64,000 nucleotides of DNA from Nannocystis radixulma (GTDB lineage Bacteria > Myxococcota_A > Polyangia > Nannocystales > Nannocystaceae): positions 693,253 through 757,252 of the forward strand of contig NZ_JAQNDN010000024.1 of the NCBI RefSeq assembly GCF_028369095.1, in the 5' to 3' direction. Of the stretch, positions 39,880 to 62,785 are shown one piece after another. Made by a program: the position numbers and the translations under genes. How positions within the stretch are numbered: the stretch's first letter is position 1; each line of letters opens with the position of its first letter. The notes beneath the pieces were generated by a model, which was not told the DNA's origin, did not search any database, and saw only the letters and a program-made list of their open reading frames with translations.

Positions 39880-41670
39880 CTACGGGACGACGACCGGCTC
39901 GGCGCCGAGATCGCGGGCGAGGTCGGCGAGCTCGCCGATCGGGACCTGCAGCGCGGGCAGGCGGGTGATGTCGGCGCGCGCGGCCTGGGCGATCGACTCG
40001 CTGGCGCGCATGATGAGGCCGCCGTGGCCGTCGGCGACGACGGTGTAGCCGGCCTTGCGCAGGCGCGTGAGGCGGGCCTGGGCCTCCGGCGAGAGGTCGG
40101 TGGCGGACGGGCGCAGGGTGGGCACGCGGCCGGGCCAGATCGCCGCCAGGTAGGCGGTGATCCGCGGCGGGTAGACGACGCCGCCGGCTGTCTTTTCGTT
40201 CAGGTGGACGTCGACCAGGGCGGCGTAGCCGTGGACGTGGCAGCGGACGGCCCCGTGCAGGTGGCTGGTCCACATCGCCTCAGGGCTGACGGGGGCGGGC
40301 CACAGGCCGTCGAACCACGCGGCGATGGCGTCGTAGCTGGGCAGGCGCTGGCCGCCGAGGGCCTCGCCGAGGCGCTGGACCTCGGCGCCGAACCGCTCAC
40401 CGCGCTCCTCCCGGCGCAGGCGGAGGAGGACGGCGAGCACGGCGATCGGGGCGGCGACGTACCACAGGCCGAACACGACGAGGACGACGCAGACGACGGC
40501 GGCGAGCAGGAGGCCGGAGCCGCCGTCGCGGACCTGCTGCTGGCGCCGCTCGTCGGCGTGGCGGGCCAGGAGGGCCCGGCGGGCCACGGCGAGGGCGCTG
40601 GCGGGGATCCGGCCCTCGGGCTCGGGCTCGGCGGCGTCGGGCCGATCGGGGAGGAAGGAGCGGACGGCGGCGACGAGCTCGCTGGTCGATCGGACAGGTG
40701 GACCGTCGGCCGGATCGCGCACGGCGGTGACCAGCAGCGGCGCCTCGGCCAACCCGCCGGGCGGGGCGGCCAGGCCTGCCGTCGACGAGGGGGTGCTCAG
40801 GCTGGCGCCGGAGCGGTTGTAGAGGATCGCCAGGAGCGAGGAGTTCGAGGGGCCGGTGCCGGGGATGGTGTCGCCGGCGCCGACGGGGCTGGTCGAAAGG
40901 ACAGGTGATTGCGGGGCCGGCAGCGGGCCGGACAGGGCCGCTGGGTCGAAGGCCGGCGGGAGCGGGACGTCGGGGGACATGTCCGCTGGGACATGTGGGA
41001 TGGCCGCAGGGACAGGGTGTTCGAGGCTGGCCGCAGGGACAGGCGACGGGTGGCTGTCCGCAGGGACAGATGGGTCGTCGGGCGGCGAGAGGTGGGCGAA
41101 CACGCTGGCCGGGGCCGACTCGGCGACGAGGCCCTCGGCGGCGAGGCCGGCGGCCAACTCGGCCGCGAGCGAGCCGGGCTTGTGCCCGGGGACCGGCGGC
41201 CGGGCGGCGAGCTGGCCCGACAGGGTGGCGGGGCCGGGCCTGGCGGGGACCGGCGCGCGCATGGTCTCGCCCGGCATCGGCTCGTAGCTGTCCTTGGGGA
41301 CAGGATGCTCGGGGCCGGGGGCGGGGGGCGCGGGGGCGGGGCCGGGGCCGATCGACAGCAGGGTGGTGGGATGGACCGGCGCGCCGAGCAGTCTGGCGGC
41401 GGGGCCCGGCTCGCTGGGCGCGTAGGCTCGGGTCCGAGGCGGCGCGATTTCCGCGGGATCAGGGGAAGGCTCCGGGCTGACTGTTGGGACAGGTGCGCTG
41501 CGGACCAGATCGCTGACGGCCTGCTGGATGGCCCGCTCGTACAGGGCGAGCGCGTCGGCGACGGCGGCCGGCAGACCGTGATCCTGACCGCAGGCCGGGC
41601 AAGTGACGGCACCGCGGATGTCGGCGAGCCCGAGCGCGTGCTGGCAATGTGGGCAGCGCAACGCGAGAGT
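39880..41670 (-). CDS. Hypothetical membrane protein with an N-terminal zinc-ribbon (CPHC...CPAC), a Pro-rich linker and a C-terminal domain
   Basis: CPHCQHALGLADIRGAVTCPACG is a 4-Cys ribbon. It is followed by a long Pro/Ala/Ser-rich segment and a TM helix (LLLAAVVCVVLVVFGLWYVAAPIAVLAVLL), then a ~230-aa C-terminal domain. I place the start at the GTG near 41670. The listed ORF extends to 42186 only by translating the 72-bp tandem repeats in frame. Confidence 0.4.
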   Translation of the reverse strand, partial: TLALRCPHCQHALGLADIRGAVTCPACGQDHGLPAAVADALALYERAIQQAVSDLVRSAPVPTVSPEPSPDPAEIAPPRTRAYAPSEPGPAARLLGAPVHPTTLLSIGPGPAPAPPAPGPEHPVPKDSYEPMPGETMRAPVPARPGPATLSGQLAARPPVPGHKPGSLAAELAAGLAAEGLVAESAPASVFAHLSPPDDPSVPADSHPSPVPAASLEHPVPAAIPHVPADMSPDVPLPPAFDPAALSGPLPAPQSPVLSTSPVGAGDTIPGTGPSNSSLLAILYNRSGASLSTPSSTAGLAAPPGGLAEAPLLVTAVRDPADGPPVRSTSELVAAVRSFLPDRPDAAEPEPEGRIPASALAVARRALLARHADERRQQQVRDGGSGLLLAAVVCVVLVVFGLWYVAAPIAVLAVLLRLRREERGERFGAEVQRLGEALGGQRLPSYDAIAAWFDGLWPAPVSPEAMWTSHLHGAVRCHVHGYAALVDVHLNEKTAGGVVYPPRITAYLAAIWPGRVPTLRPSATDLSPEAQARLTRLRKAGYTVVADGHGGLIMRASESIAQAARADITRLPALQVPIGELADLARDLGAEPVVVP

Positions 41671-41844
41671 CGGGGAGAGCACGGCGGGACGATACCGCAG
41701 AAAATCGGCCCCGGGCCGGACGGGGCGCGGGCGCGGCCGCGCAGGTCGGCGAGGCCCGCGATGGCGGGCGCGCGAGGGGACGCGAGCGACCGGCCAGCGC
41801 GGTCGCGAGTCGTCGCGACGTAGAAGGTGACGCGCGTGACAGGT

Positions 41845-42200
41845 CGCGGCCGGAACGTGGGGCCGACGCGAGCGCGTGGCGGTGAGACCGGGGCGCGGAG
41901 GTGACGCGGGGGCTGCCCGTGGTCGGGGCGAGGGGCCGAGGCGAGCGCGTGGCGATGAGACCGGGGCGCGGAGGTGACGCGGGGCTGCTCGTGGTCGGGG
42001 CGAGGGGCCGACGCGAGCGCGTGGGGGGGAGACCGGGGCGCGGAGGTGACGCGGGGCTGCTCGTGGTCGGGGCGAGGGGCCGAGGCGAGCGCGTCGCGGT
42101 GAGCCGGGAGGACACTGTGCCGGGCCGAGGCGAGCGCGTGGCGGTGAGACCGGGGCGCGGAGCCGTGCCGAGCGCGGACGGGACACGGGCGGGCCTGCGG
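41845..42200. repeat. 72-bp tandem direct repeat array, about 4.5 units
   Basis: Unit CGAGCGCGTGGCGGTGAGACCGGGGCGCGGAGGTGACGCGGGG(G)CTGCYCGTGGTCGGGGCGAGGGGCCGAGG. Three copies at 41889-42105 are >95% identical, with degenerate copies on either side. The array sits in the divergent intergenic region between the zinc-ribbon gene and the M16 peptidase gene. Confidence 0.8.
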
Positions 42201-45097: not shown

Positions 45098-45205
45098 GCC
45101 GCTCGCGGCCCGGTGCGCGGCGCAGCTGAACGAGCGGCGCCGCGGTGCTCGCGTCTGCGGGAGCGTGTCATGTCCGAAAGGACATGTGTTCACGGCCACT
45201 GCGGC

Positions 45206-45707
45206 TCAGTCGTCGTCGGTCTCGTCCGGCTCGGCCACCACGCGCTCGCCCTCGACGGTGAGGTACTCGTCGCGGTCCTGGAGGCGATCGACCCGCAGGT
45301 CACCGCCGACGTAGAACTCGGTCTCGAAGATGAAGAGCGCGCGGGCCACGAGGTCGCCGAGGACGACGGCGCACATCAGGCGGTCGGACACACGGAGCTC
45401 GCCGCGGACGGTGAGGTCGCCGGTGACGACGATGGTGCCGATGTCTTGCGGGGCGGCGGCGAGCTGCAGCTGCGACCAGTGCTCGTCGCCGAGCCAGGCG
45501 TCGCCGTCGACGGTGAGGTCGCCCTCGTACACCGCGCAGGCGCAGCCGTAGACGCCGCCGGAGGCGAGGCGGGCGCGGGTGCCGTGGCGGCGGTCGAGCT
45601 CCTGTTCGCTGATGACGATCGGCTGCTGCACGCGCGGAGTGTCGCACGCGGAGGCAGGGCTGTCATCGAGGGGGACGTGATTGAAAGGACATGCCTGAAG
45701 AAACATG
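45206..45707 (-). CDS. Hypothetical protein (167 aa), in an operon downstream of the LysR gene
   Basis: Start MFLQACPFNH lies 9 nt after the LysR stop. The C-terminal two-thirds are Gly/Asp/Val-rich beta-repeat-like (GDLTVDGDAW, GDLTVRGELRV, GGDLRVD) with an acidic tail. The upstream part of the listed 851-aa ORF is an artefact. Confidence 0.45.
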
Positions 45708-45716
45708 TCCTCGGGG

Positions 45717-46637
45717 CTAGCCGCGAGCGCGCCGCGAGCGGGCCGGGCCGCGCCCGACGTACGCGCCGAGGCCGGCCCACAGCGCGTCGAAGACGGTCCG
45801 GCAGCGCCGCGACGCCTTGAGATCTTCGTGCATGGCGAGCCACATCTCGACCTTCGGCGCGAACTCGCCGGCGAGCACGCGGACGAGCCCGGCGCGGCGG
45901 GCCAGCGGGACGTGGCAGGCACCGATCCCGCAGCCGGCCCGGATCGCCGCGAACTGGGCGACGTCGTCGTCGGTGCGGAAGCTGAAGGCGTCGCGCGTGA
46001 GCGGCCGGCCGCCGAGGCGCAGGGTGCCGGTGTACGGGGCGGGCACGTCGAAGCCGACCAAAGCGTGCCGGGCCAGGGCCGCGGGAGTGGTCGGGGCCGG
46101 CCGGCGCGCGAGGTAGCCGGGCGCGGCGAACAGGCCGAGCTCGAAGGCGCCGACGCGTTTGGCCAGCAGCGCGCCCTGACTCGGGCGCACCGTCCGCACG
46201 GCGATGTCGGCGTCGCGCCGCACGAGGTCGGCGATCCGGTTCGACACCACCAGCTCGACGACGATGCCGGGGTGCTCGGCCTGGATGGCGGCGAGGACCG
46301 GCGGCAAGACCTCGGCGGCGACGATCTCGCTGGCGGTGATCCGCACGGCGCCGACGTTCTCGGCCAGCGGGCCCGAGGCCTTGCGCAGCAGCGAGTCGGT
46401 GGCGGCGACCAGGGCCTCGACCTCGGGGCGCAGCGCCTCGGCGGCGGGCGTGGGCGTGAGGCCGCCGCGCGAGCGGGTGAACAGCGGCAGCCCGAGCGCC
46501 TCCTCGAGCGCGGCGACGTGACGGCCGAGCGTGGGCTGGCTGAGGCCGAGACGACGCGCGGCCGCCGACAGCGAACCCTCGCGCAGGACCGCGGCGAAGG
46601 CTCGGTACAGCGACCAGTCCGGCGGATCGGGTGACAT
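45717..46637 (-). CDS. LysR-family transcriptional regulator
   Basis: The N-terminal wHTH is LYRAFAAVLREGSLSAAARRLGLSQPTLGRHVAALEEALGLPLF. A LysR substrate-binding domain follows. It is divergent from the epoxide hydrolase gene. Confidence 0.85.
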   Translation of the reverse strand: MSPDPPDWSLYRAFAAVLREGSLSAAARRLGLSQPTLGRHVAALEEALGLPLFTRSRGGLTPTPAAEALRPEVEALVAATDSLLRKASGPLAENVGAVRITASEIVAAEVLPPVLAAIQAEHPGIVVELVVSNRIADLVRRDADIAVRTVRPSQGALLAKRVGAFELGLFAAPGYLARRPAPTTPAALARHALVGFDVPAPYTGTLRLGGRPLTRDAFSFRTDDDVAQFAAIRAGCGIGACHVPLARRAGLVRVLAGEFAPKVEMWLAMHEDLKASRRCRTVFDALWAGLGAYVGRGPARSRRARG

Positions 46638-46720
46638 GCAAAAATGAATAGATGGGCCCCAATTTTATGCAATTCCAAAGTGATGGCCGGGGCGGCAGGT
46701 TCGCGGGCGGAGACCGAAAC

Positions 46721-47833: not shown

Positions 47834-48033
47834 CGCGCGATGGCTGGTCTTGAGGGCATGTCCTCACGGCCATGGGCGTGGGCGACCGGCTCCGCGATGA
47901 GCGCCGCGACGACCGGCGGCGCCGGCTGTGTGCATGTCCATGAGGACATGTCCTCGGGTTCACGCGCGTGCGCCCGACCGGCGGCGATTCGCTCTCCGGA
48001 GCCCGGCCCGGAGATGACCTTCAGGTCATGTCC

Positions 48034-48249
48034 TCAGGGCCAGTCGTCGAGGTCGAGGTCGCGGCCGAGCTCGGGGTCGGCCGCGAGCAGGTCTCGCAGG
48101 GTGGCCTCGCGCAGGCCGAGGGCGCGCGCGCCGGCGCTCACGCTGGCCTGGGCTGCCAGGACGGCCCGGACCTCGCGGCGGAAGGCGGCGGGGTCCGTGC
48201 GGCGCAGGGCCAGCAGCAGCGGCTCGCGGGGCTCGGCGGGGAGGGTCAT
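48034..48249 (-). CDS. Small Fis/HTH_8-like DNA-binding protein (71 aa), a putative call
   Basis: GC3 is very high (~97%). VLAAQASVSAGARALGLREATLRDLL resembles the HTH of Fis and NtrC C-termini. There is no clear RBS. The gene is flanked by palindrome hairpins. Confidence 0.35.
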   Translation of the reverse strand: MTLPAEPREPLLLALRRTDPAAFRREVRAVLAAQASVSAGARALGLREATLRDLLAADPELGRDLDLDDWP

Positions 48250-48305
48250 GCGCGGACTGTAGCGCGCTTGTCGCCGGCGGGGCGGTCGTGCTTCAGTCGC
48301 TCGTG

Positions 48306-48908: not shown

Positions 48909-48929
48909 GGGGAGCGGCAGCCGCGGCGA

Positions 48930-49385
48930 TGACGATCGCGTGTCCGAAGGGACATGTCGCTCGCGCCAGCCGCGGTGAAGCCGGGCGGAGGAGCCGGGCA
49001 CGAGCGATATGTCCGCACGAGGGCAGCCCGCGCCAGGTGAGCGCGGCGACGGAGCCGGAGACGATAGGCGGCTGACCAGGCCGCGTGCCGGCGGCGGAGC
49101 GGGGCTCGATTGCTCGTCCGCATGGGACATGTCGCTCCGGCGGTCGAGCGTGTCCGCGGCGGAGCCGGCGCATGGATGTCCGCATGGACATGGCGCTCCG
49201 GCGGCCGCGGTTCGCGTCCGCGGCGGAGCGATGCTCACGAATGTCCGAGGGGACATGTCGCAAGGGACATCGGTGAACAGCGGGCCCGCGGGGGCGGAAC
49301 TGCCCGTGGACACATGTCCGCATGGACATGTCGTTCGCGCCAGCTCCGGTCGAGTGTCCACGAGCTGGGGATCTCGCATCGATCG
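48930..49385. repeat. Intergenic array of ~60-65-bp direct repeats, each carrying the TGTCC-N4-GGACATGT palindrome
   Basis: At least six copies are present, for example GTCCGAAGGGACATGTCGCTCGCG at 48933, GTCCGCATGGGACATGTCGCTCCGGCGG at 49119, GATGTCCGCATGGACATGGCGCTCCGGCGG at 49180, AATGTCCGAGGGGACATGTCGCAAGGGACAT at 49242 and ACATGTCCGCATGGACATGTCGTTCGCG at 49303. The conserved spacer is GTCCGCGGCGGAGC. The repeats create spurious CPHGH and MSxRTC peptides in all frames. Confidence 0.6.
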
Positions 49386-52263: not shown

Positions 52264-52435
52264 GGGGCGGCGAGCGTACGAGAGGCCGCCGGAGCCGCCT
52301 GCACCAAGAGCCAGCCCGAAGATGTGAGCTTGCGCCGTGTCGGTGGGGCAAAGCACGCTCCGCTCGGGCGTCCACGGAGGGGGAAGGGCGAGGCTTGTCG
52401 TGTCCCGGGCGATCCCCGTAGGATGCGCCGACCCC

Positions 52436-52726: not shown

Positions 52727-52738
52727 GACCAGGCGGCC

Positions 52739-53392
52739 GTGATGGCGGACCCTGACGGCAAGCCGCAGCGGGCCGCGGGGGTCCCGAGGTGGCTCCCGGC
52801 GGTGTTCCGTTCGCTGCTGGTCGGCGGCTACCCGCTGGTGGTGTACCTCGGGATGACGCGCTGGAGCCCGCGCACGCTGGCGCTGGTGCTCGCCTGCGCG
52901 CTGCTGCCGGGGCTCGTGCTGCGCCTGCGCGAGGCCCGGCGCGAGGACCTGTGGCCGGTGCTGCGGGTGCCGCTGTCGCTCCTCGGGCTGTTCGCGGCGG
53001 CGGCGCTGTCGGGCGAGCAGCGGCTGTTCATGGCCCTGCCGGTGCTGGTCAACCTGGGGCTCCTGGCCAACTTCGCGGCCAGCCTGCGCGGGCCGGTGTC
53101 GCTGGTCGAGCGGTTCGCGCGGCTGCAGGAGCCCGAGCTGCCGCCCGGCGGGCCGGCTTACTGCCGCAAGGTCACGGTGGTCTGGTGCGGGTTCTTCGTC
53201 GCCAACGCGGCCGTCAGCGCCGCGCTCGCGCTGTGGGCCCCTGTGGCCTGGTGGACGCTGTACACCGGACTTTTGGCGTACCTGCTGATCGGGGTAATGT
53301 TCACCGTCGAGTACATCGTCCGCAAGGCGACCTTCCGCCGGTTCGGCGACGCGTTGCCCGACCGCTTGCTCCGCCGTCTGCTCCGCGCATGA
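52739..53392 (+). CDS. Integral membrane protein of the lipid-pigment operon, hypothetical
   Basis: It has 5-6 TM helices. Its stop overlaps the next start (ATGA at 53389-53392). Confidence 0.5.
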   Translation: MMADPDGKPQRAAGVPRWLPAVFRSLLVGGYPLVVYLGMTRWSPRTLALVLACALLPGLVLRLREARREDLWPVLRVPLSLLGLFAAAALSGEQRLFMALPVLVNLGLLANFAASLRGPVSLVERFARLQEPELPPGGPAYCRKVTVVWCGFFVANAAVSAALALWAPVAWWTLYTGLLAYLLIGVMFTVEYIVRKATFRRFGDALPDRLLRRLLRA

Positions 53393-55242
53393 GGTCCTTC
53401 GTCCCGCTCGTCCACACCGATCCCGCGGCGCGCGTCGCCGTCGGCGAGGCCGGCCCGCGCAGCGCGGGCGAGCTGATGCGCGACGCCAGCCTCGTCGCCG
53501 AGCGCCTGCCGCCGGCGCGGCCCGGCAGCGAGGTGCTGGTGGTCTGTGGCGACCGCTATCACCTGGCGGTCACGGCCCTGGGCGCGTGGCTGCGCGGCCA
53601 CGCGGTCGCGCTGCCGCCGAACGCCCAGCCGGCGGCGGTGCGCGAGCTGGCGGGGCGCGCCGACGTGGTGGCGCTGATCCACGACTCCGATCTGGCCGAT
53701 GCTCAGGACGTCCGCGACTGGCTGTCCGGACATGCCCCTGGGGACATGGTCGATCCGACATGGCCCGAAGCGCTGCCGGCGGACCGGCGGCTGGCGGTCG
53801 TGTACACCTCGGGCAGCACCGGCGACCACCAGCCGTGCGCCAAGACGGCCGGGCAATTGCTCGGCGAGGCGCAGGCGCTGGCGGCCACGTTCGCGCTGGC
53901 GGCCGGCGAGGTGGCGCTGGCGACGGTGCCGCCGTACCACCTCTACGGGCTGCTGTTCGGGGTGCTGGCGCCGCTGGCCGCGGGGGCGGCGTTCGCCCGC
54001 GAGACGCCGCTGCACGCCGAGACGGTGGCGAGGGCGGCGCGCGAGGTCGGGGCGACGGTGCTGATCAGCACGCCGGCGCACCTGCGCGGGCTGACGGTGC
54101 TGCAGCGCGGCGACCTGCCGCCGCTGCGGCGGGTGTTCTCGTCGGGCGCGCCGCTGCCGCGGGCGACCGCGGACGAGCTGCTGGCCCAGCTCGGGCTGGC
54201 GGTGACCGAGGTGTACGGCTCGTCGGAGACCGGCGGGATCGGCTGGCGGCGGCACGAACAGGTCCTCGGGGACATGTCCCCGGAGCCAGCCTGGACGCCG
54301 CTGCCGGGGGTCGCGGTCGAGGTCGCGGCCGAGGGGCGGCTGCTGCTGCGCTCGCCGTTCTTGGCCCCCGACGCGCCGCCGCCGTACCCCTGTGAGGATC
54401 GGGTCGAGCTCGACGCGCGCGGCGGGTTTCACCTGCGCGGGCGGCTCGACGGGGTGGTGAAGGTCGCCGGCAAGCGGGTGGCGGTGGCGGAGGTCGAGCA
54501 GCGGCTGCTGGCGTTGCCGGCGGTGGCCGACGCGGCGGTGGTGGCGATCGAGACGCCTGGCGCCCGCGGGCACGAATTGATGGCCGCGGTGGTGGCCCGC
54601 GACTCGGGTCGCGACGCCAGCGAGCTGGTGGCCGAGCTGCGGCGGGGGCTGCTCCCGTGGTTCGACCCGGTGGTGGTGCCGCGGCGGATCAAGGTGGTGC
54701 CCGCGCTGCCGCGCGAGCCCAACGGCAAGCTGACGAAGCGGCGCCTGCACGCGCTGCTCGGGCTGACGGCGGAGGAGCCGGCCGATGCGGGGCGCGGCGG
54801 ATCGACCGAGCCGACGGCGACCAGGCGCGATGAGCCGCGTACGGGCGGGAACGGAGCTGCGCGTGACTCGGCCGACGCGGGGACGATCGGGTTCGAGCTG
54901 CGCGGGCACGTGCGGGGCGACGCGGGCGACGCGGCGGTGCACGAGGTCGAGGTCGGGGTGCCGGTCGACCTGGCGTTCTTCCGCGGACACTTCGACGGCG
55001 CGCCGGTGCTGCCCGGGGTGGCGCAGCTGACGGCCCTGGTGGTGCCGCAGGTGGCGGCGCTGCGGCCCGAGCTGGGGCGGCTGCGGCAGGCGGCGCGGCT
55101 CAAGTTCACCCGGCCGATCGCGCCGGGCGACGCGCTGGTGCTGCGGCTCGAGGTGCGGGGGACGAGCGTCCGCTTCTCGCTGGCGCGCGCGGGCGAGGTG
55201 GTCACCGCCGGGGCGCTCGAGTACGAGGCGCGCGGTGACTGA
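53389..55242 (+). CDS. AMP-dependent synthetase/ligase fused to a C-terminal hotdog (FabA/FabZ-like) dehydratase
   Basis: The AMP-binding motif is VVYTSGSTGDHQ. The A5 and A8 motifs are YGSSETGG and GRLDGVVKVAGKRVAVAEVE. The C-terminal FFRGHFDGAPVLPGV is a FabZ/FabA-type dehydratase signature. Confidence 0.75.
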   Translation: MRSFVPLVHTDPAARVAVGEAGPRSAGELMRDASLVAERLPPARPGSEVLVVCGDRYHLAVTALGAWLRGHAVALPPNAQPAAVRELAGRADVVALIHDSDLADAQDVRDWLSGHAPGDMVDPTWPEALPADRRLAVVYTSGSTGDHQPCAKTAGQLLGEAQALAATFALAAGEVALATVPPYHLYGLLFGVLAPLAAGAAFARETPLHAETVARAAREVGATVLISTPAHLRGLTVLQRGDLPPLRRVFSSGAPLPRATADELLAQLGLAVTEVYGSSETGGIGWRRHEQVLGDMSPEPAWTPLPGVAVEVAAEGRLLLRSPFLAPDAPPPYPCEDRVELDARGGFHLRGRLDGVVKVAGKRVAVAEVEQRLLALPAVADAAVVAIETPGARGHELMAAVVARDSGRDASELVAELRRGLLPWFDPVVVPRRIKVVPALPREPNGKLTKRRLHALLGLTAEEPADAGRGGSTEPTATRRDEPRTGGNGAARDSADAGTIGFELRGHVRGDAGDAAVHEVEVGVPVDLAFFRGHFDGAPVLPGVAQLTALVVPQVAALRPELGRLRQAARLKFTRPIAPGDALVLRLEVRGTSVRFSLARAGEVVTAGALEYEARGD

Positions 55243-55243
55243 C

Positions 55244-56068
55244 ATGTCCGCAGGGACAGGTGAGAGCGAGATGTCCGAAGGGGCAGCTGAGATGTCTGCC
55301 GGGACAGGCGCGTTCCGGCCGTGCGCGCTGATCCCGACCTACGACAACCCGCTGACGGTCCGCGACGTGGTGCTGCGGGTCAAGGCGCACCTGCCCGACG
55401 TGGTCGTGATCGACGACGGCAGCGGCGAGGCGGGGCGGCAGGCGGTCGCGGCGCTGGGGGCCGAGGGGCTGGCGCAGGTGCGCCGGCGGGCGCAAAACGG
55501 CGGCAAGGGGGCGGCGGTCAAGACCGGGTTCCAGTTCGCGCGCGAGCTCGGCTACACCCACGCGCTGCAGGTCGACGCCGACGGGCAACATGACCTCGGG
55601 GACATTCCGAAATTCCTGGCGACCGCGCGCGAGCGGCCGGACGCGTTGATCCTCGGGGCGCCGGTGTACGACGCGTCGGCGCCGAAGGGGCGGCTGGTCG
55701 CCCGCAAGATCACGCTGTTCTGGACCGACTTCGAGGCCGGCCGCGGGGTCATCACCGATCCGATGTGCGGCTTCCGGGTCTACCCGCTGGACCCCGCGCT
55801 GGCGCTCGGGCGCACCGGCGATCGCATGGACTTCGACATCGAGGTGGCGGTGCGCCTGGTGTGGGCCGGGGTGCCGGTGATCAATCTGCCGACGAAGGTC
55901 CGCTACATCGGCCGCGACGAGGGCGGGGTGTCGCACTTCCGCGTGTTCGGCGACAACCTCAAGATCTCGTGGCTGCACACCCGGCTGTCGTTCCAGCGGG
56001 TGATGGTGCGGCCGTGGGTCAACCTCTACCGCCGCCTGCGGCGCCCGGCGCTGCCGGCCGGCCGCTGA
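55244..56068 (+). CDS. Family-2 glycosyltransferase
   Basis: The GT2 motifs VVVIDDGSGE, a DAD(G)-type region and QxxRW-like are present. The first ATG lies 1 nt after the stop of the upstream gene. Three in-frame ATGs occur within the first 20 codons (see the tandem-repeat finding). Confidence 0.8.
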   Translation: MSAGTGESEMSEGAAEMSAGTGAFRPCALIPTYDNPLTVRDVVLRVKAHLPDVVVIDDGSGEAGRQAVAALGAEGLAQVRRRAQNGGKGAAVKTGFQFARELGYTHALQVDADGQHDLGDIPKFLATARERPDALILGAPVYDASAPKGRLVARKITLFWTDFEAGRGVITDPMCGFRVYPLDPALALGRTGDRMDFDIEVAVRLVWAGVPVINLPTKVRYIGRDEGGVSHFRVFGDNLKISWLHTRLSFQRVMVRPWVNLYRRLRRPALPAGR

Positions 56069-56092
56069 GCGAGAGGACAGGTTCGATCGGCC

Positions 56093-57040
56093 ATGGCGGA
56101 GCAGGCAGGTTCGGAGGGACATGTCCCGGCGATCAGGCCCGACGACGGCGACCGGGCGTGGATGACCCGGCCCGAGCGCGGGACGGTGCTGGGGATCCGG
56201 GCGACGCTGCTGTTCTGCCGGGTGTTCGGGCGGCGGGGCGCGGGCGTGCTGCTGGCCGTGATCACGTTCTACTACGCGCTGTTCGCCGGCAAGGCGCGGC
56301 GGGCCTCGCAGGACTACCTGCGGCGGATCGGCCAGCCGCACGGGTTCTGGGCCAGCTGGCGCCACATCTACACGTTCGCCCGCTGCGCGCTCGACCGCGT
56401 GTTCCTGGTCCGCGGCGAGACCGGGCGGTTCCGCATCACCCACACCGGCATCGAGCACCTGCGAGCGCTGCAGGCCGAGGGGAAGGGGGCGCTGCTGCTC
56501 GGGGCGCACCTCGGCTCGTTCGAGGCGATGCGGGCCAGCAGCGTCGACAAGCGGATCCCGATCCACATCCTCGCGTACTGGCAGAACGCGAAGATGATCA
56601 ACGACTTCCTGCGCACGGTGCAGGCCGACTTCGACGTGCGGGTGATCCCGATCGACCCGCGGGACACGAGCTACATCCTGACCGCCAAGGAGGCGATCGA
56701 GCGCGGGGAGCTGGTGGCGGTGCTCGGCGACCGGGTCGGGGTCAACGACAAGGCCTGCACGGCCGAATTCCTCGGCGCCCCGGCGCGCTTCCCGACCGGG
56801 CCGTACACCCTCGCGGCGCTGCTAAAGTGCCCGATTTACTTGACTTTCGGTCTGTACCACGGGCCCGACCGCTACGATCTTTATTGCGAGCCCTTCGCCG
56901 AACAATTAGAAATGCCCAGGGGCCGCCGCGAGGCGGCCACCGCCGCCCATGTCCAGCGCTACGCCGAACGCCTCGAGCACTACTGCCGCCTCGCGCCGCT
57001 CAACTGGTTCAACTTCTACGAGTTCTGGAGGTCGGAGTGA
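56093..57040 (+). CDS. LpxL/HtrB-type lysophospholipid (lipid A-like) acyltransferase
   Basis: An N-terminal TM helix is present. The HX4D-type acyltransferase core is LLLGAHLGSFEAM. Size is 315 aa and the architecture is that of lauroyl/myristoyl-acyltransferases. Confidence 0.75.
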   Translation: MAEQAGSEGHVPAIRPDDGDRAWMTRPERGTVLGIRATLLFCRVFGRRGAGVLLAVITFYYALFAGKARRASQDYLRRIGQPHGFWASWRHIYTFARCALDRVFLVRGETGRFRITHTGIEHLRALQAEGKGALLLGAHLGSFEAMRASSVDKRIPIHILAYWQNAKMINDFLRTVQADFDVRVIPIDPRDTSYILTAKEAIERGELVAVLGDRVGVNDKACTAEFLGAPARFPTGPYTLAALLKCPIYLTFGLYHGPDRYDLYCEPFAEQLEMPRGRREAATAAHVQRYAERLEHYCRLAPLNWFNFYEFWRSE

Positions 57041-58566: not shown

Positions 58567-58967
58567 GCCGCCTGCACGAGGTCTCGGTCGAGTTCGAGGT
58601 CCCGTTCCACGACGTCGACATCCTCAACATCGTCTGGCACGGGCACTACTACAAGTACATGGAGATCGGTCGGACCGCGCTGATGCGCGCGCGCGGGCTC
58701 GACATCGAGGACATCCGCCGCGCGGGCTACGCCCAGCTGCTGGTCGACAGCCACTGCCGCTACACCTACCCGCTGCGCTACGCCGACCGCGCCCGCGTCG
58801 ACGCGTGGTTCGTGTCGGTGACGCCGCGGCTGGTCATCGCCTACCGGATCCGCAACCTCAAGGACGACCGCTGCTCGGCCCGCGGGCAGACGATCCTCGT
58901 CACGACCGACCAAGAAGGTCGCCTCTTGCCGGAGACGCCCGATGCGCTGCTCAAGTACCTGGTGTAG
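58563..58967 (+). CDS. 4HBT/YbgC-type hotdog acyl-CoA thioesterase
   Basis: 134 aa. FEVPFHDVDILNIVWHGHYYKYMEIGR matches the YbgC/4HBT consensus with a catalytic Asp in HDVD. The GTG start overlaps the lyase stop. Confidence 0.75.
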   Translation: MSRLHEVSVEFEVPFHDVDILNIVWHGHYYKYMEIGRTALMRARGLDIEDIRRAGYAQLLVDSHCRYTYPLRYADRARVDAWFVSVTPRLVIAYRIRNLKDDRCSARGQTILVTTDQEGRLLPETPDALLKYLV

Positions 58968-58989
58968 CCAGCTCAGGTCCCAGTTGTCC

Positions 58990-59700
58990 GTGCGGACAGG
59001 TCTGTTCGGACATGTCCTTGCGGTCATGGTCGTCATGACCGGTTCGATCGGCCAGGCGGGCGCGACCGACCCGTTGCCGGTGGCCGCCGCGCCGGTGGCG
59101 GCCGCGTTGACGCTCGATCAGCTGCTCGGCCGGTTCGCCGGGATGAGCGGGCTGCAGGCGGCGTTCCGCGAGGAGAAGCGGATGGCCCTGCTGGCGGCGC
59201 CGCTGGTCAACGAGGGCACGATCTACTTCGTGCCCAACGGCAAGAAGTCGCGCCTGGCCCGGCACACGGCCAAGCCGGCGCGCTCGGTGGTGGTGATCGA
59301 CGGCTCGGCGCTGCGCATGGCCGACGACGCCGGGCGCGAGGAGATTTCGCTCGACAAGAGCCCGGCGGTGCGGCTGTTCGTCGACTCGTTCGTCAGGATC
59401 TTCGCCGGCGACGGCGAGGCGCTGGCGACGATGTACGCGATGGAGCTCAAGTCCGAGGGCCAGCGCTGGACGCTGAAGCTGAAGCCTAAGCTGGCGCCGC
59501 TCGACAAGCTGATCGAGCGGGTCGAGATCGCCGGCGAGGGGGTCGTGATCGCGACGATGCGCGTGGTCGAGATCGGCGGCGACGAGGCGGTCACCACGTT
59601 CTCGGCCGTCGACCCGCAGCGCAAGTTCACCGCCGAGGAGCAGACGACGCTGTTCAGCCTGCCGCCGAAGCCGGCCGCGCCGCCGCCGGCGGGCCGCTGA
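58990..59700 (+). CDS. LolA-like outer-membrane lipoprotein carrier protein
   Basis: The GTG start gives MRTGLFGHVLAVMVVMTGSIGQAGA, a signal peptide. The LolA-like fold cues are LQAAFREEKRMALLAAPLVNEGTIYFVPNGKKSRL. The 5' boundary is uncertain; the alternative ATG is at 58942. Confidence 0.55.
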   Translation: MRTGLFGHVLAVMVVMTGSIGQAGATDPLPVAAAPVAAALTLDQLLGRFAGMSGLQAAFREEKRMALLAAPLVNEGTIYFVPNGKKSRLARHTAKPARSVVVIDGSALRMADDAGREEISLDKSPAVRLFVDSFVRIFAGDGEALATMYAMELKSEGQRWTLKLKPKLAPLDKLIERVEIAGEGVVIATMRVVEIGGDEAVTTFSAVDPQRKFTAEEQTTLFSLPPKPAAPPPAGR

Positions 59701-59756
59701 CGCGGCGTCCGGCGGATGGACCTGTCTGACAAAACCTGGCTGATGGGACCTGCCTG

Positions 59757-62144
59757 ATGGAACCTGGTCGAGCGGACAGGGCGAGCGCGTGGCGGGCGGG
59801 CCTCGGCGCGGCGCTGGTGGCCGGGCTGGCGGCGTTCTGCGTGCTGCGCCTGCAGGTGGTCACCGACATCACCGCGTTCATGGCCGACGTCGCCGACCCC
59901 AAGCTGGCGGCGCTGTCGCGCGGGATGGCCAGCTCGGAGCTGACGCGCACGCTGGTGCTGTCGGTCAGCGACGAGCAGGGCGATCCGGACGTCGCCATCG
60001 CCGGGGCGCAGGCGCTGGCCGACCGGCTGCAGACCCGCTCCGAGGTGGCGTGGCTGCGCACCGGGCCGGGCGAGCTGCACGCCGAGGCGATCCACAACCT
60101 GTACTACCCGCGGCGGTTCTTCCTCCTGGCCGACGAGACAGGTGGCCTTCAGGACAGGTTGTCCGACGACGGGCTGCGGGCCGCCGCGCGCGAGCTGCGG
60201 CGCCAGCTCGGCCTGCCGACGTCGGGGGTGATCAAGCAGATCGCGCCGGCCGACCCGCTGCTGGCCTATCCGGCCCAGCTGCGCCGGCTCGAGGCGGCCC
60301 AGGGCGGCGGGGTCGGGCTGCGCGACGGGCACTTCGTGGCCGAGGACCAGCACGCGCTGGTGATGCTGGCGACCCGCAGCTCGCCGTTCGACGCCGCCGA
60401 TCAGGCGCCGCTGCAGGCGGCGATCGAGGCGGCGTTCGCCGAGATCGACGCCCAGTCGGGCGGGCGCCTGGTGCTCGAGCAGTCGGGCGTGGCCCGCTTC
60501 GCGCTGGCGTCCGAGCGCAGCATGCGCGAGGACATCGGCCGGATCTCCACCGTCTCGCTGGTCGGCATCGTCGCGCTGTTCCTGCTGATGTTCCGCTCGC
60601 CGCGGCTGGTGCTGCTGTCGCTGGCGCCGCTGGTGGCGGGCGTGGCGGCGGCGCTGGCGGCCTGCCTGGCGCTGTTCGGGTCGGTCCACGGGCTGACGCT
60701 GGCGTTCGGGGCGACGCTGATCGGGGTGTGCATCGACTACTCCGTGCACCTGTTCAACCACCACATGCTCGACCCGCCGCGCGGCGGGCCGCGGCAGAGC
60801 GCGCGGCGGATCTGGCCGGGCCTGTTGCTCGGGGCGCTGACGACGGTGGCGGGCTTCGCCGGGCTGGCGTGGACCAGCTTCCCCGGGCTGCGCGAGGTGG
60901 CGCTGTTCGCCTCGATCGGGGTGCTGGTGGCCGCCCTGGCGACGCGCTACTGGCTACCTGAACTTTTGCCCATGTCCCCGAAGCCAGGGTGGATCCAGCG
61001 CCGGGCGGCGGCCGGGCTGGCGCGGATGGTCGCGGCGATGCGACGGCGGCGCTCGGCGGTGGCGGTGCTGCCGGCGGCGGCGCTCGGGCTGTGCGTGGTC
61101 GGGCTGCCGCGCATCGAGTTCTCCGACGACGTGCGCCGGCTGACGGCGCTCGACCCGGAGATGCTGGAGGAGGACGAGCGGGTGCGGGCGCGGGTGTCGC
61201 GGATGGACGGCGGGCGCTTCGTGGTCGCGTTCGGGGCCGACGAGGAGGCGGCGCTGGCCGGCAACGACGCGGTCGCGGTCCGCCTGCGCGCGGCCCAGGC
61301 GGCCGGCGAGGTCGAGGCGTTCCGCAGCCTGCACGCGCTGGTGTGGTCGGAGCGGCTGCAGCGCGACAACGCGGCGGCGCTGGCCGACCCGAGCCTGCCG
61401 GCCCGCCTCGACGCGGCGTTCGTGGCCGAGGGCTTCCGCGCCGGCTCGTTCGCCAAGTTCTTTTCGGACATGTCCCATGGGCCAGACCCGATGCGGCCGG
61501 CCGACCTGGCCGCGACGCCGCTGGCCGAGGCGGCGCGGACGTTCCGCGCCGACATCGAGGGCGGCGAGGTGGCGTTGGTGACGCTGCTGCGCGGGGTCGG
61601 CGATGTGGCGGCGCTGCAGGCCCGCCTGGCCGACCTGCCCGACGTGCGCTACTTCGACCAGCAGGGCATGATGCAGGCGGCGTTCGGCCGCTACCGCGCG
61701 CGCACGCTCGAGCTGGTGGTGTTCGGCCTGCTGGCGATGCTCACGACGGTGTGGCTGCGCTACCGCCGGCTCAAGCTGGCGCTGGCGGCGTTCGCCCCGG
61801 CGGTGCTGGCGGCCGCGACGGCGCTGGCGCTGATCGCCCTGAGCGGGGTGACGATCGGGATCCTCCACGCGGTCGCGCTGCTGCTGGTGCTGTGCATGGG
61901 CGTCGACTACGGGGTGTTCCTGGCCGAGAGCCGCCACGACCCGCGGGGCTTCGACGCGACGGTGCTGAGCGTGCTGCTGGCCTGTCTGACGACGGTGCTG
62001 GCGTTCGGGCTGCTGGCGATGTCGGCCAGCCCGGCGCTGCAGGCGATCGGCGTCACCGTCGGCCTCGGGGTGCTGCTCAGCCTGGTGCTGGCGCCGGCCG
62101 CCCTGGTGCTGGCGGGCGCTGGCGAGGGGAAGGACCACGGATGA
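59757..62144 (+). CDS. MMPL/RND-superfamily exporter, a putative lipid-pigment transporter
   Basis: 795 aa. Two 6-TM bundles are each preceded by a large periplasmic loop, which is the MMPL topology. Confidence 0.8.
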   Translation: MEPGRADRASAWRAGLGAALVAGLAAFCVLRLQVVTDITAFMADVADPKLAALSRGMASSELTRTLVLSVSDEQGDPDVAIAGAQALADRLQTRSEVAWLRTGPGELHAEAIHNLYYPRRFFLLADETGGLQDRLSDDGLRAAARELRRQLGLPTSGVIKQIAPADPLLAYPAQLRRLEAAQGGGVGLRDGHFVAEDQHALVMLATRSSPFDAADQAPLQAAIEAAFAEIDAQSGGRLVLEQSGVARFALASERSMREDIGRISTVSLVGIVALFLLMFRSPRLVLLSLAPLVAGVAAALAACLALFGSVHGLTLAFGATLIGVCIDYSVHLFNHHMLDPPRGGPRQSARRIWPGLLLGALTTVAGFAGLAWTSFPGLREVALFASIGVLVAALATRYWLPELLPMSPKPGWIQRRAAAGLARMVAAMRRRRSAVAVLPAAALGLCVVGLPRIEFSDDVRRLTALDPEMLEEDERVRARVSRMDGGRFVVAFGADEEAALAGNDAVAVRLRAAQAAGEVEAFRSLHALVWSERLQRDNAAALADPSLPARLDAAFVAEGFRAGSFAKFFSDMSHGPDPMRPADLAATPLAEAARTFRADIEGGEVALVTLLRGVGDVAALQARLADLPDVRYFDQQGMMQAAFGRYRARTLELVVFGLLAMLTTVWLRYRRLKLALAAFAPAVLAAATALALIALSGVTIGILHAVALLLVLCMGVDYGVFLAESRHDPRGFDATVLSVLLACLTTVLAFGLLAMSASPALQAIGVTVGLGVLLSLVLAPAALVLAGAGEGKDHG

Positions 62145-62785
62145 ACCTTCGGGCATGGTCGATCGGGCATGTCGTCGGGGTCATGCTCCTGGGGGCATGC
62201 TCCAAGGGGCAGCAGGCCGAAGCGGCGCCGCCGCGGGAGCTGCGCGACGCCGACTACCCGGGGGCGCTGGCGACGACGCTGGCCGGGCCCGACTTCATGG
62301 CCCGCCAGCGCCTGCACGGCACGGCCCGCGGGCGCGAGATCGGCGGCGAGGTGGTGCTGCAGAAGCAGGGGGACGCGCTGACGCTGGTCGGGCTGACGCC
62401 GTTCGCGACCAAGGCGTTCGTGGCCAAGCAGCAGGGCGCCGAGGTGAAGATCGAGGTGTTCGCGCCGGAGGGCAAGCTGCCGTTCCCGCCGCGCTTTATG
62501 CTGCTCGACGTGCACCGCGTGCAGTTCCTCGGGCTGCCGGGGGCGCCGCTGCCCGACGGGACGCACACGGGCGAGGTCGGCGACGAGCGGGTGACCGAGG
62601 TGTGGCAGGGCGGGGCGCTGCTCGAGCGCCGCTTCGAGCGCAAGGACGGCAAGCCGGCCGGCGCGATCGTCATCACCTACGAGGGCGGGATGAAGGACGG
62701 GGCGTTGCCGGCGCGCGTGCGCCTCGACAACGGGTGGTTCGGCTACCAGATCGCGGTCGAGACGCTGCAGTGGCAACCGCTGTGA
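62141..62785 (+). CDS. Lipoprotein, DUF3261-like, as found in aryl-polyene clusters
   Basis: MNLRAWSIGHVVGVMLLGAC is a signal peptide with lipobox. The ATG overlaps the MMPL stop (ATGA). Confidence 0.5.
   Translation: MNLRAWSIGHVVGVMLLGACSKGQQAEAAPPRELRDADYPGALATTLAGPDFMARQRLHGTARGREIGGEVVLQKQGDALTLVGLTPFATKAFVAKQQGAEVKIEVFAPEGKLPFPPRFMLLDVHRVQFLGLPGAPLPDGTHTGEVGDERVTEVWQGGALLERRFERKDGKPAGAIVITYEGGMKDGALPARVRLDNGWFGYQIAVETLQWQPL

Follow-up and report, generated by a model that had tools for sequence, protein, structure and literature searches.

REP and BIME elements of Enterobacteria and Pseudomonas, including those of the REPIN-RAYT systems, are short, lineage-specific palindromes present in hundreds to thousands of copies, partly in clusters. 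They are extragenic, favor gene 3' ends and convergent gaps, lie between the cistrons of operons, turn over in number and position between relatives and are missing from recently acquired DNA. For Pseudomonas putida the REPs are reportedly biased to convergent over tandem over divergent gaps. The DUS of Neisseria and the USS of Pasteurellaceae are also lineage-specific, at about one per few kb; they are found immediately downstream of ORFs as inverted pairs whose spacer varies, occur in coding DNA as well and are absent from foreign DNA, and they are often found as single copies. HIP1 (GCGATCGC), the highly iterated palindrome of cyanobacteria whose origin is unknown, is a lineage-specific, hyper-abundant short palindrome of coding and non-coding DNA. 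Rickettsia palindromic elements (RPEs) are mobile elements of 100-150 bp with in-frame copies in variable or disordered protein segments. Finally, intrinsic terminators, as well as the U-tract-less "I-shaped" hairpins of high-GC bacteria, are stable post-stop hairpins that act bidirectionally in convergent gaps.

The window, i.e. the whole 64-kb stretch of Nannocystis radixulma DNA analysed here, contains a palindrome that resembles each of these systems in part. Probably (we would put it at about 0.6) it is a REP-like, genus-specific 3'-end and intercistronic hairpin repeat of Nannocystis/Nannocystaceae that would play its role at the 3' end on the RNA level. The complete unit, GGACATGTCC-N4-GGACATGTCC, can be described as a stem of 10 bp closing a loop of 4 nt or, equivalently, as a pair of 10-bp palindromes in a 14-nt register, so that each arm is a palindrome in its own right. 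The consensus unit folds with -17 kcal/mol, and individual copies range from -14 to -17 kcal/mol. A logo of 201 copies is two-fold symmetric, with GGACATGTCC on both sides and no conservation beyond. The loops are highly variable (the commonest accounts for about 6% of the 201 copies), and the GC content of the stem is 60% compared to 72% for the genome. Spacing of the core is rigid: 191 cores with N4 stand against 5 with N3 and 2 with N5 in the Nannocystis/Nannocystaceae loci. The 10-mers occur as 184 pairs and 19 longer runs, whereas shuffled sequences gave no pairs; lone 10-mers are rare (16/123, 13%), although about 0.6 would be expected by chance. Distances between neighboring copies peak solely at 14, 28 and 42 nt, and some copies carry locus-specific stem extensions to 15-18 bp.

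The core TGTCC-N4-GGACA occurs 11 times in exact form in the window (0.02 expected) and 30 times with at most one mismatch (1.8 expected). A scan with a 24-nt-wide weight matrix trained on other Nannocystis loci gave 46 matches of at least 10 bits, 44 of them at 40.9-62.2 kb, against 0.9 in shuffles, and 34 of at least 14 bits against 0.1. The palindrome of the first-pass annotation is real and far above chance.

The perfect 16-base form was found in 104 genome loci, 82 of which belong to Nannocystis or Nannocystaceae, and by this distribution the family is specific to the genus and its family. The 644 kb of these loci contain 191 exact cores, at 0.16-0.7 per kb in Nannocystis; as these loci were selected for having a perfect copy, both the densities and the proportion of perfect stems are overestimates. 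Extrapolation suggests roughly 1000 or more copies per Nannocystis genome. The octamer ACATGTCC is present 373 times in non-coding DNA (2.1 expected) and 84 times in coding DNA (8 expected), and this approximately 10-fold enrichment inside genes lacks an explanation from a role at 3' ends. The genes next to the copies are functionally unrelated; kinases and response regulators are the only gene families that recur. The same dyad is a promoter-proximal operator in Kribbella, Nocardia and Amycolatopsis, which means that proteins reading the 5-N4-5 geometry exist.

The copies in the window are as follows (strands refer to the genes; L numbers denote loci of relatives, L105 being from N. punicea).

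40975..41073: four copies with a 27-nt period (40975, 40996, 41023, 41050) in the Pro-rich part of ORF 39880-42186 (-), where they are translated in frame into ..VPA(D/A).. repeats; the N. punicea orthologue has at least nine copies in the same region, most at the 27-nt period.
41284..41307: single copy GTAGCTGTCC-ttgg-GGACAGGATG (21.5 bits) in the coding sequence or 5' leader of ORF 39880-42186 (-), whose start is ambiguous.
45166..45189: hairpin TGTCATGTCC-gaaa-GGACATGTGT (27.5 bits, -14.5 kcal/mol) between the convergent M16 peptidase gene (stop 45097) and gene 45206-45631 (-), 16 nt from the stop of the latter; a copy downstream of M16 is also found in L105 and L106.
45687..45724: degenerate pair of units (10.0 and 12.5 bits) immediately at the LysR stop (gene 45717-46637, -), upstream of gene 45206-45631 (-).
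47854..48047: cluster of five overlapping matches (47854, 47930, 47944, 48010, 48024) between the convergent epoxide hydrolase gene (stop 47833) and the 72-aa gene 48034-48249 (-); the final unit shares bases with the stop codon of the latter, and this copy is kept in N. punicea (L105 13403/13417).
48936..49347: BIME-like cluster (48936, 49115 with a 1-nt indel, 49172, 49237, 49251, 49296, 49310, 49324) in the 624-bp convergent gap between the PDZ gene (stop 48908) and gene 49533-51254 (-); within the cluster, 49116-49261 is a tandem repeat (61-65-nt period) in which the hairpin is paired with a second GC-rich inverted repeat. The orthologous gap of N. punicea, barely alignable, contains five copies as well.
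53728..53751: copy (21.3 bits) within the AMP-ligase/ApeI gene (53389-55242, +).
54256..54293: second copy within this gene, at a variable loop of the AMP-ligase and translated as E-Q-V-L-G-D-M-S; shared with N. punicea and the distant MAG L108 (ACCTGTCC-ccgg-GGACAGGT), missing in L106 and L107.
55240..55311: three units directly 3' of the AMP-ligase stop, whose TGA (55240-55242) already forms the initial 3 nt of the first one; the GT2 start ATG (55292) likely comes from the third. The array is an insertion compared to L106, L107 and L108, where the AMP-ligase and GT2 genes overlap.
56103..56140: two overlapping units near the beginning of the acyltransferase ORF (56093-57040), within codons 1-16 and with the motif ATG out of frame; N. 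punicea has a copy at the same position (L105 4915).
58980..59031: between the 4HBT thioesterase stop (58967) and the LolA-like start (59026) lie three units in the 14-nt register, the last of them degenerate and holding this start in its 3' arm; among all copies, the one at this junction is conserved most deeply (L105, L109, L106, L108), with differing loops.
59711..59777: degenerate array of GGACCTGTCT-like units (14-nt period, 4.1 copies) after the LolA stop (59700) and over the MMPL start (59757).
60138..60161: in-gene copy (15.9 bits) in the MMPL gene.
61466..61489: in-gene copy GGACATGTCC-catg-GGCCAGACCC in the MMPL gene, read D-M-S-H-G-P-D.
62149..62211: degenerate array of GGGCATGTCG-like units (14-nt period) after the MMPL stop (62144), containing the start (62183) of a lipobox-bearing gene.

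Nearly all coordinates of the first-pass annotation were recovered (at 40975, 45166, 45687, 47854, 47930, 48010/48024, 48936, 49172, 49237/49251, 49310, 53728, 54256, 55240/55267/55288, 56103/56117, 58980-59031, 60138, 61466 and 62165). Its 49119 is the copy with the 1-nt indel, 59711-59777 and 62149-62211 are degenerate arrays, and 57540 and 60962 are not members of the family. The hairpins that it placed between convergent genes at 45166 and 47932 are both present, the latter at 47930.

A concentration of copies at gene 5' ends, as had been proposed, was not found. With gene positions in the 82 loci taken from a codon-usage gene caller (compared with recorded gene calls at one locus only), copies are enriched 11.5-fold in convergent, 4.1-fold in tandem and 1.5-fold in divergent gaps, and depleted in coding DNA (0.3-fold). 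Most copies in divergent gaps belong to one disputed ORF. Overall, 70% of the copies are intergenic compared to a background of 15%, and about a quarter of the exact copies lie in frame inside genes. In tandem gaps a copy follows the upstream stop by a median of 26 nt and precedes the next start by 213 nt. The median distance of the hairpin past the stop is 22-26 nt; 56 copies are closer to a stop and 20 closer to a start, and 102 of 217 lie within 80 nt of a stop. The window gives the same picture, with copies in 3/3 convergent but 0/4 divergent gaps, save the ambiguous copy at 41284, while the operon copies, present at five gene junctions of the lipid operon, all lie downstream of the stop of the preceding gene. 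The apparent preference for 5' ends and Met-Ser starts results from the tight spacing of the operon genes. In loci that were not picked for the motif, 13 gene ends have a motif hairpin, 4 another perfect hairpin of at least 7 bp and 26 neither; the motif is the commonest post-stop hairpin there.

ATGTCC had also been read as the Met-Ser start of six genes. This plausibly holds for GT2 (55292, Met-Ser-Ala), where the recorded N. punicea gene call likewise uses the equivalent motif ATG, but not for the other five. The ORF at 45705, taken for a gene starting at 45707, is antisense to the real LysR gene. In the acyltransferase, ATGTCC at 56121 is out of frame with ORF 56093; in the LolA-like gene, the frame opened by ATGTCC at 59012 is not that of the gene and ends at a stop, the in-frame start being 59026. 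The starts of MMPL (59757) and the lipoprotein (62183) lie within degenerate units and are not ATGTCC. Since the ATG is part of the palindrome (ACATGT) and most frames are open at 72% GC, a motif ATG readily shows up as an ORF start. Among motif ATGs near predicted starts 14/31 are in frame, compared to about 10 expected by chance. A structure for translation initiation at a fixed distance from the ATG is not supported, given this missing frame preference and the proximity of the copies to stops rather than starts.

Like an intrinsic terminator, the palindrome is a stable hairpin soon after the stop. In contrast to such terminators, one stem sequence is reused genome-wide and is less GC-rich than the genome, and a U-tract is not found 3' of the hairpin as a feature of the family: only 4% of the oriented copies have at least four T in the next 8 nt, and the T profile 3' of the stem reflects merely the adjoining repeat unit. 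Consequently, the hairpin is not a canonical intrinsic terminator. No canonical terminator was found at any gene end at 44-64 kb of the window, and U-tract terminators appear to be rare in Nannocystis. Rfam 15 gave no match at gathering score anywhere in the window. An RNA-specific signature was not detected by the strand test of mismatches (62 G-U vs 49 A-C on the sense strand, p = 0.25); GNRA loops on the sense strand (15, vs 6 antisense) are suggestive only. Positions with double variants in the stem are complementary in 151/283 cases, compared to one third expected, and at the AMP-ligase site orthologues differ in both members of a flanking pair (A-T in L105, C-G in L108). Outside the 5-bp core, however, the two arms vary almost independently, and the loop edges have a symmetric Y...R preference without covariation. 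Together with a spacing stricter than folding needs, this fits a two-fold symmetric protein bound to half-sites at least as well as RNA folding.

Between orthologous copies, loops have 0.37 differences per site, compared to 0.10 for stems and 0.15 for flanks. The 4HBT-LolA hairpin is kept even in relatives where the product of the 49533-51305 orthologue is only about 54% identical. By these comparisons the stem sequence, beyond mere pairing, is conserved over deep divergence. Between close species, arrays appear, disappear and change in size. We infer that the stem is kept by a sequence-specific process, either a trans-acting factor or homogenisation, and not by recent copying. Positions 1..39880 of the window are essentially motif-free despite about 6.5 kb of intergenic DNA: all 30 matches with at most one mismatch lie at 38400 or beyond, and the weight matrix has two weak matches in this part. 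It encodes a multicopper oxidase, a 5802-aa NRPS and others, GC dips at 8-20 kb, and synteny with N. punicea and N. pusilla stops at about 39.88 kb. The motif-free 1-39.9 kb is a strain-specific island.

Taken as a REP-like 3'-end repeat, the hairpin would be part of the upstream gene's transcript and fold at the end of it. It may then mark or protect mRNA 3' ends, or partly attenuate read-through between cistrons; being symmetric, it would act in both directions. Within operons it falls between a stop and the next start and can by chance provide an ATG, as for GT2, or cover a start, as for LolA. One extension of this reading, which we offer tentatively and regard as unlikely, is that a two-fold symmetric trans-acting factor is dedicated to recognising the stem GGACAUGUCC/GGACATGTCC, which would make the family a genus-wide, sequence-specific 3'-end system instead of inert REP-like DNA. 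Such a factor could act specifically on the hairpin in termination, processing or protection, or could use the motif as a self-DNA marker for uptake or recombination. It would explain the rigid N4, the palindromic arm, the conserved stem, the free loops and the missing transposon hallmarks together.

The palindrome shares with REPs its length (24 nt, compared to about 20-40 nt), its hundreds or more of copies, its mostly extragenic position and the turnover of its arrays. A classical REP/REPIN family, i.e. selfish non-autonomous DNA moved by a single-copy RAYT (an IS200-like Y1 transposase) with the 3'-end role as a secondary co-option, would account for these traits, for the genus-specific range, for the order convergent > tandem > divergent, for arrays inserted or resized between close species, for the motif-free foreign island and for the BIME-like clusters (48.9-49.35 kb of the window, L033, L085, L029). 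Co-option of REP doublets as terminators has a precedent (PMC3337134). Such an origin is nevertheless doubtful: the fully symmetric logo has neither a GTAG-type tetranucleotide nor distinct a/b flanks that would give an orientation, the arm is palindromic, and copies prefer the 14-nt register and its multiples instead of a REPIN-type doublet spacing. The loops are not shared but hypervariable, both within a genome and between orthologues, which copying from a master sequence would not yield, and the quarter of exact copies inside genes is equally atypical. Apart from the kinases and response regulators no gene family recurs nearby, and tblastn with E. coli RayT and IS200 TnpA queries found no match in about 750 kb of sampled motif-rich Nannocystis loci. 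No target-site duplication accompanies the AMP-ligase/GT2 insertion, the sole case with an available empty site (L106). Thus, the earlier proposal of a REP/MITE-like family stands for a high-copy, genus-wide, mostly extragenic and 3'-biased repeat, but several defining traits of RAYT-REPs and MITEs are missing; a MITE has terminal inverted repeats around an internal segment and a target-site duplication on its flanks, whereas two 10-bp arms plus 4 nt make up the whole element here. A CRISPR array was rejected because the spacers are themselves tandem-repeated (65-nt period at 49116-49261, 57/115-nt period in L033).

Alternatively, the copies may be double-stranded binding sites of a two-fold symmetric protein with the half-site R-GGACATGT, whose dyad symmetry would bring the ability to form hairpins as a side effect. 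The protein could be a nucleoid-associated or roadblock-type factor, or the sites could serve self-DNA recognition or uptake in the manner of the Neisseria DUS pairs. Dyad symmetry, fixed spacing with a free spacer and independent half-sites are traits of an operator, and this geometry alone leaves room for a DNA-binding factor. The absence of strand asymmetry, the uncovarying spacer edges, a palindromic arm that a plain hairpin does not need, the stem sequence conserved over deep divergence and the operators of Kribbella, Nocardia and Amycolatopsis with the same dyad point the same way. So do the traits shared with DUS/USS, namely lineage-specific excess, inverted pairs after ORFs, presence inside genes and absence from foreign DNA. 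Yet in Nannocystis the pair is the unit, its half-site is palindromic, its spacer is fixed at 4 and lone 10-mers are rare. Moreover, the stop-codon coupling and the convergent enrichment have no obvious reason in a binding site, and both the excess of complementary double variants and the locus-specific stem extensions speak against one. We consider this alternative rather improbable. Strictly local readings, either an operator co-controlling the lipid/aryl-polyene-like operon and its neighbors, as the first-pass annotation had suggested, or an RNA structure gating translation initiation at the motif ATG, start from the copies at the five operon junctions, the likely GT2 start and the LolA start in a hairpin arm; local effects on coupling or initiation of these two genes are plausible. 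The census largely refutes them as explanations of the motif, and they are very improbable: copies are spread genome-wide beside unrelated genes with a bias to 3' ends, divergent gaps are scarcely enriched, arrays turn over and are missing at junctions of relatives with the same operon, and the claimed Met-Ser starts are mostly out of frame or antisense. The motif is neither a start-codon signal nor a local operator.

Two further systems share single traits with the REP-like hairpin repeat favored here. HIP1 is a lone 8-mer without a tie to gene 3' ends, whereas the Nannocystis 10-mer is nearly always paired as a hairpin. The in-frame copies in variable or disordered protein segments, for example those behind the VPxD-type peptides and behind the Pro-rich repeats in ORF 39880-42186, recall RPEs, but Nannocystis copies are 24 nt long or 27-nt periodic and mostly extragenic.

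One stem sequence serving as the default post-stop hairpin, with free loops, a strict spacing and no transposase signature, raises the question of whether it is kept by a sequence-specific factor or by some spreading mechanism. As a sharp signature of native DNA, the motif marks the 1-39.9 kb NRPS island, by its absence there, as a recent acquisition. Nannocystis is mined for natural products, and hairpins between the cistrons of biosynthetic operons, which are easily removed, may tune relative expression or stall heterologous expression. For annotation, recognising the element helps to locate true starts and stops, since the ATGs in the palindrome create spurious ORF starts; long out-of-frame ORFs that begin in motif-related arrays include 45705-46634 and 62155-63939.

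The palindrome with the core TGTCC-N4-GGACA occurs in the window in large excess over chance. Eleven exact cores were found where dinucleotide-preserving shuffles give 0.02, and with at most one mismatch there are 30 against 1.8, all within 38.4–61.5 kb. Scoring with a 24-nt weight matrix derived from motif copies of other genomes yields 46 matches of at least 10 bits (0.9 in shuffles), 44 of them at 40.9–62.2 kb. These counts rule out chance or base composition as the source of the motif and confirm the pervasive palindrome of the first-pass annotation. Nearly all copies located there were found again; 57540 and 60962 contain no members. The stretches 59711–59777 and 62149–62211 are degenerate arrays with a period of 14 nt. 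A search of Rfam at the gathering score matched the motif to no known RNA family, and a phage origin was rejected with just 8 single matches among 2.9 million viral contigs.

A logo of 201 exact-core copies gives the consensus GGACATGTCC-NNNN-GGACATGTCC, with no conserved positions beyond it. The unit is a 10-bp palindrome repeated in a 14-nt register, i.e. a 10-bp stem with a 4-nt loop, and the consensus RNA fold has -17 kcal/mol. The spacer is nearly invariant in length (N4 in 191 copies, N3 in 5, N5 in 2). Among runs of the 10-mer there are 184 pairs (0 in shuffled sequence), 14 triples and 5 longer runs, and just 16 of 123 perfect 10-mers stand alone; the pair is the normal form of the motif. 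Distances between neighbouring copies peak at 14, 28 and 42 nt only, and a REPIN-like doublet spacing was not found among them. Loop sequences are highly diverse, the most frequent accounting for ~6% of copies. Their edges show a symmetric bias without covariation, with a pyrimidine at the first and a purine at the last position. Since positions 1-4 and 2-3 do not covary, the loop is no extension of the palindrome, and an ancestral CCGG loop decayed by deamination was also rejected, YYRR being present in only 32 of 199 loops.

Scanning ACATGTCC-N4-GGACATGT over one genome per species gave at least 104 loci, and among the matches listed 82 of 104 belong to Nannocystis or Nannocystaceae (N. exedens, N. 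pusilla, N. punicea, N. bainbridge, strain RBIL2 and several MAGs). These 82 loci were ascertained through a perfect motif copy. The Nannocystis loci hold 191 exact cores in 644 kb, and ~0.16 per kb are left after subtraction of the ascertaining copy of each locus; by extrapolation, a 12-Mb genome would contain on the order of 2,000. With both strands counted, the octamer ACATGTCC was observed 373 times in non-coding DNA (2.1 expected) and 84 times in coding DNA (8 expected). The window is close to N. punicea and N. pusilla, to which the product of the gene at 49533–51305 is 94–95% identical; their orthologous loci carry 14 and 16 exact cores, respectively, in 22 kb. More distant Nannocystaceae, with 79%, 53% and 54% identity of the neighbouring gene product, have 1–2 each. 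The motif family is therefore old and has expanded in Nannocystis.

Gene models of the 82 loci were obtained with a codon-usage caller built for this analysis. For the N. punicea locus (L105) it reproduced nearly all recorded stop codons and most starts. The intergenic share of 217 exact cores is 70%, against a background of 15%, and the enrichment differs between types of gap.

Frequency of the motif by position relative to genes
Convergent gaps: 11.5-fold over background
Tandem gaps: 4.1-fold over background
Divergent gaps: 1.5-fold over background
Coding DNA: 0.3-fold of background

The majority of divergent-gap copies lie within a single disputed ORF. In tandem gaps the median copy is located 26 nt past the upstream stop (lower quartile 14) and 213 nt ahead of the next start; 56 copies are closer to the stop and 20 closer to the start. 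Within 80 nt of a stop lie 102 of the 217 exact cores, and in several copies the stop codon is part of the 5' arm, e.g. TGACATGTCC at 55240 in the window. Together with the low value for divergent gaps, these distances do not bear out the earlier view that the motif is concentrated at gene 5' ends. Of 43 gene ends with a gap, taken from loci selected without regard to the motif, 13 have the motif hairpin, 4 have another perfect hairpin of at least 7 bp and 26 have none. Within the window all three convergent gaps carry copies (between the M16 and 45206 genes, the epoxide hydrolase and 72-aa genes, and the PDZ and 49533 genes), compared with none of four divergent gaps, save an ambiguous copy at 41284.

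The region 52328–63939 is an operon resembling aryl-polyene/flexirubin-type lipid clusters, and its gene order is kept across Nannocystaceae (L105 and the loci of three more distant relatives, L106–L108).

Genes of the operon at 52328–63939
First part: ACP, unknown 217-aa protein, AMP-ligase fused to an ApeI-like dehydratase, GT2
Second part: lipid-A-type acyltransferase, aromatic ammonia-lyase, 4HBT thioesterase
Last part: LolA-like protein, MMPL transporter, lipobox protein

Copies sit after the stops of the AMP-ligase, 4HBT, LolA and MMPL genes. Third-position GC indicates that the 594-aa ORF at 62155–63939 is in the wrong frame; the real genes in its place are 62183–62785 (MLLGAC.. start, lipobox) and ~62782–63939.

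Many copies had been described as overlapping start codons, with ATGTCC encoding Met-Ser. The ATG belongs to the palindrome itself (ACATGT) and the genome has 72% GC; therefore, ORFs are opened on both strands. Near predicted starts, 14 of 31 motif ATGs are in frame and ~10 are expected by chance, which does not support a start signal. The supposed Met-Ser start at 45705 belongs to an ORF antisense to a genuine LysR gene, and ATGTCC is out of frame both at 56121 (acyltransferase) and at 59012 (LolA-like). The MMPL and lipoprotein starts (59757 and 62183) do lie inside degenerate units but do not encode Met-Ser. The GT2 start is the exception that holds, the recorded N. punicea call using the same ATG. 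This ATG comes from the last unit of a three-unit array (55240–55311) that is inserted by comparison with L106, L107 and L108, whose AMP-ligase and GT2 genes overlap. The LolA start (59026) is within the 3' arm of a degenerate unit. Effects of the hairpin on GT2 and LolA are plausible locally and incidental for the motif family overall.

The position behind stops, the bias towards convergent gaps, the stability of the fold and its symmetry lead us to propose that the motif is transcribed as a 3'-end or intercistronic hairpin. Such a hairpin would protect 3' ends or attenuate read-through in both directions, and may take the place held elsewhere by U-tract terminators. By membership tests it is no canonical terminator: no T-tract was found 3' of the hairpin, and a consensus scan detected no terminator at any gene end at 44–64 kb of the window, its one site being intragenic and below the shuffle count. 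The operator family suggested earlier likewise fails membership tests. A two-fold symmetric trans-acting factor that recognizes the motif, on RNA or DNA, is nevertheless a possibility, because folding alone leaves five features unexplained. The N4 spacing is rigid, the arm is itself palindromic, and the stem sequence itself is conserved beyond mere pairing. Moreover, outside the core the arms vary nearly independently, despite an excess of complementary double variants (151 of 283, p = 5e-12), and there is no sense-strand G-U or tetraloop signature: neither the balance of G-U to A-C mismatches nor the frequency of GNRA/UNCG loops differs significantly between the sense and antisense strands.

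In kind, the motif is a REP-like, lineage-specific extragenic palindrome, and a REP/REPIN family driven by a RAYT is a live rival to the 3'-end hairpin. However, the asymmetric flank and the doublet spacing of such families are absent, the loop is not shared between copies and tblastn for RAYT/IS200 transposases near copies was negative in the 750 kb of loci sampled. All-against-all clustering of the 82 loci returned only Ser/Thr kinases and response regulators as recurrent ORFs. Of the REP/MITE-like family proposed initially the REP-like character stands; by membership tests a RAYT-REP is not demonstrated, and the motif is no MITE.

Orthologous copies retain their stems, with per-site differences of 0.37 in loops, 0.15 in flanks and 0.10 in more distant sequence. 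The 4HBT-LolA junction hairpin is found in five taxa, down to ~54% identity of the 49533–51305 orthologue product, with the loops GTGC, GTGA, ATGA, CTTC and TGGA. A copy inside the AMP-ligase gene, in a part encoding a variable loop of the protein, is common to the window and the distant MAG locus L108; its flanking pair has changed in both partners, being A-T in L105 and C-G in L108. Comparison of the window with L106 had raised a de novo origin of this hairpin via substitutions, which was rejected because L108 has it at the same site; the hairpin is therefore ancient, and L106 and L107 have lost it. The 624-bp PDZ/49533 gap is barely alignable between the window, where it holds 6–8 copies, and N. 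punicea, where it holds 5; the AMP-ligase/GT2 array of N. punicea, at 228 bp, is also longer than the 70 bp of the window. Long gaps contain tandemly amplified hairpin-bearing units (period 65 nt at 49116–49261 of the window, 57/115 nt in another scanned locus, L033). A CRISPR-like reading of clustered arrays was rejected, because the spacers are themselves tandem repeats.

Predicted genes contain about a quarter of the exact cores, and these strongly favour one reading frame: 33 of 51 encode V-(P/L/R)-x-D, which preserves GC-rich third positions. ORF 39880–42186 contains copies as 27-nt periodic Pro-rich repeats (..VPAD..), of which N. punicea has at least 9. A separate 72-nt tandem repeat at 41859–42108, with 3.5 copies and 92% matches, is located either ahead of this minus-strand ORF or in its 5' part; if translated, it would give Arg/Pro-rich repeats.

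Alignment of the window with L105 and the N. pusilla locus L109 ends at ~39.88 kb. The preceding 1–39.88 kb have no counterpart beside the orthologous gene in either species and are read as a strain-specific island, with GC down to 0.66–0.69 at 8–20 kb.

Genes of the island
37498–39441, minus strand: multicopper oxidase
19701–37106, minus strand: 5802-aa NRPS, module repeats of ~3.15 kb

The motif is essentially absent from the island despite ~6.5 kb of gaps and would therefore build up slowly in resident DNA. From 39441 to ~39880, coding-like third-position GC persists in the multicopper oxidase frame without an in-frame ATG, GTG or TTG, which may reflect an unusual start, a frameshift or the remnant of a pseudogene. 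The genes for LysR (45717–46637, minus strand) and epoxide hydrolase (46652–47833, plus strand) have no counterpart here in L105, L109 or L106. From the sequence comparison, both are assigned as inserted in the hairpin-rich gap between the 45206–45631 and 48034–48249 orthologues, and hairpin copies are present at both borders of this insertion (45710–48010). In L109 (N. pusilla GCA_049060185.1), AMP-ligase, M16 peptidase and lyase genes are fragmented or missing at 3547–7098 and 14196–16810, and at the hairpin site an odd TGTTTTAAAGAC stands in place of the conserved sequence. These are probably assembly indel errors, not biology.

The searchable literature yielded no description of the motif in bacteria; GGACATGTCC appears there mostly as a p53 half-site of eukaryotes or as an incidental mention in work on eukaryotes. 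For N. exedens, msDNA-like repetitive sequences were reportedly described by Lampson and Rice in 1997 (Mol Microbiol 23:813), and msDNA-like repeats again in a 2002 report by Lampson et al. A review (PMC6868368) describes these repeats as duplicated msr/msd copies and, judged by this description, they appear to be larger elements than the motif.

At L031 5201, L064 3450 and L009 4067, an orthologous hairpin is followed by a conserved GGGTGTTGACAGGGCTGGCGGGGGTTGCAAGA. By its TTGACA this looks like the promoter of the next gene, so that a 3' hairpin and, behind it, a promoter would share a single gap.

Scan matches in Kribbella, Nocardia and Amycolatopsis were rejected as a repeat family and represent one conserved promoter/operator locus. 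Here TTGACA is directly followed by TGTCC-N4-GGACA, with two further dyads ~30 and 44 nt on. The dyad looks like a genuine operator of an actinobacterial regulator, unrelated to the Nannocystis repeats.

Dyad sites in Kribbella, Nocardia and Amycolatopsis (scan loci)
L014, 1001–1060
L024, 6725–6785
L043, 997–1058
L045, 2687–2745
L101, 2984–3042
L018, 6264
L056, 6453
L059, 6225–6283

A Bryobacter MAG locus (L048, 5860–6205) carries a different local repeat, with several copies of GTCCGGAC/GGACATGTCC-like units within 350 nt.
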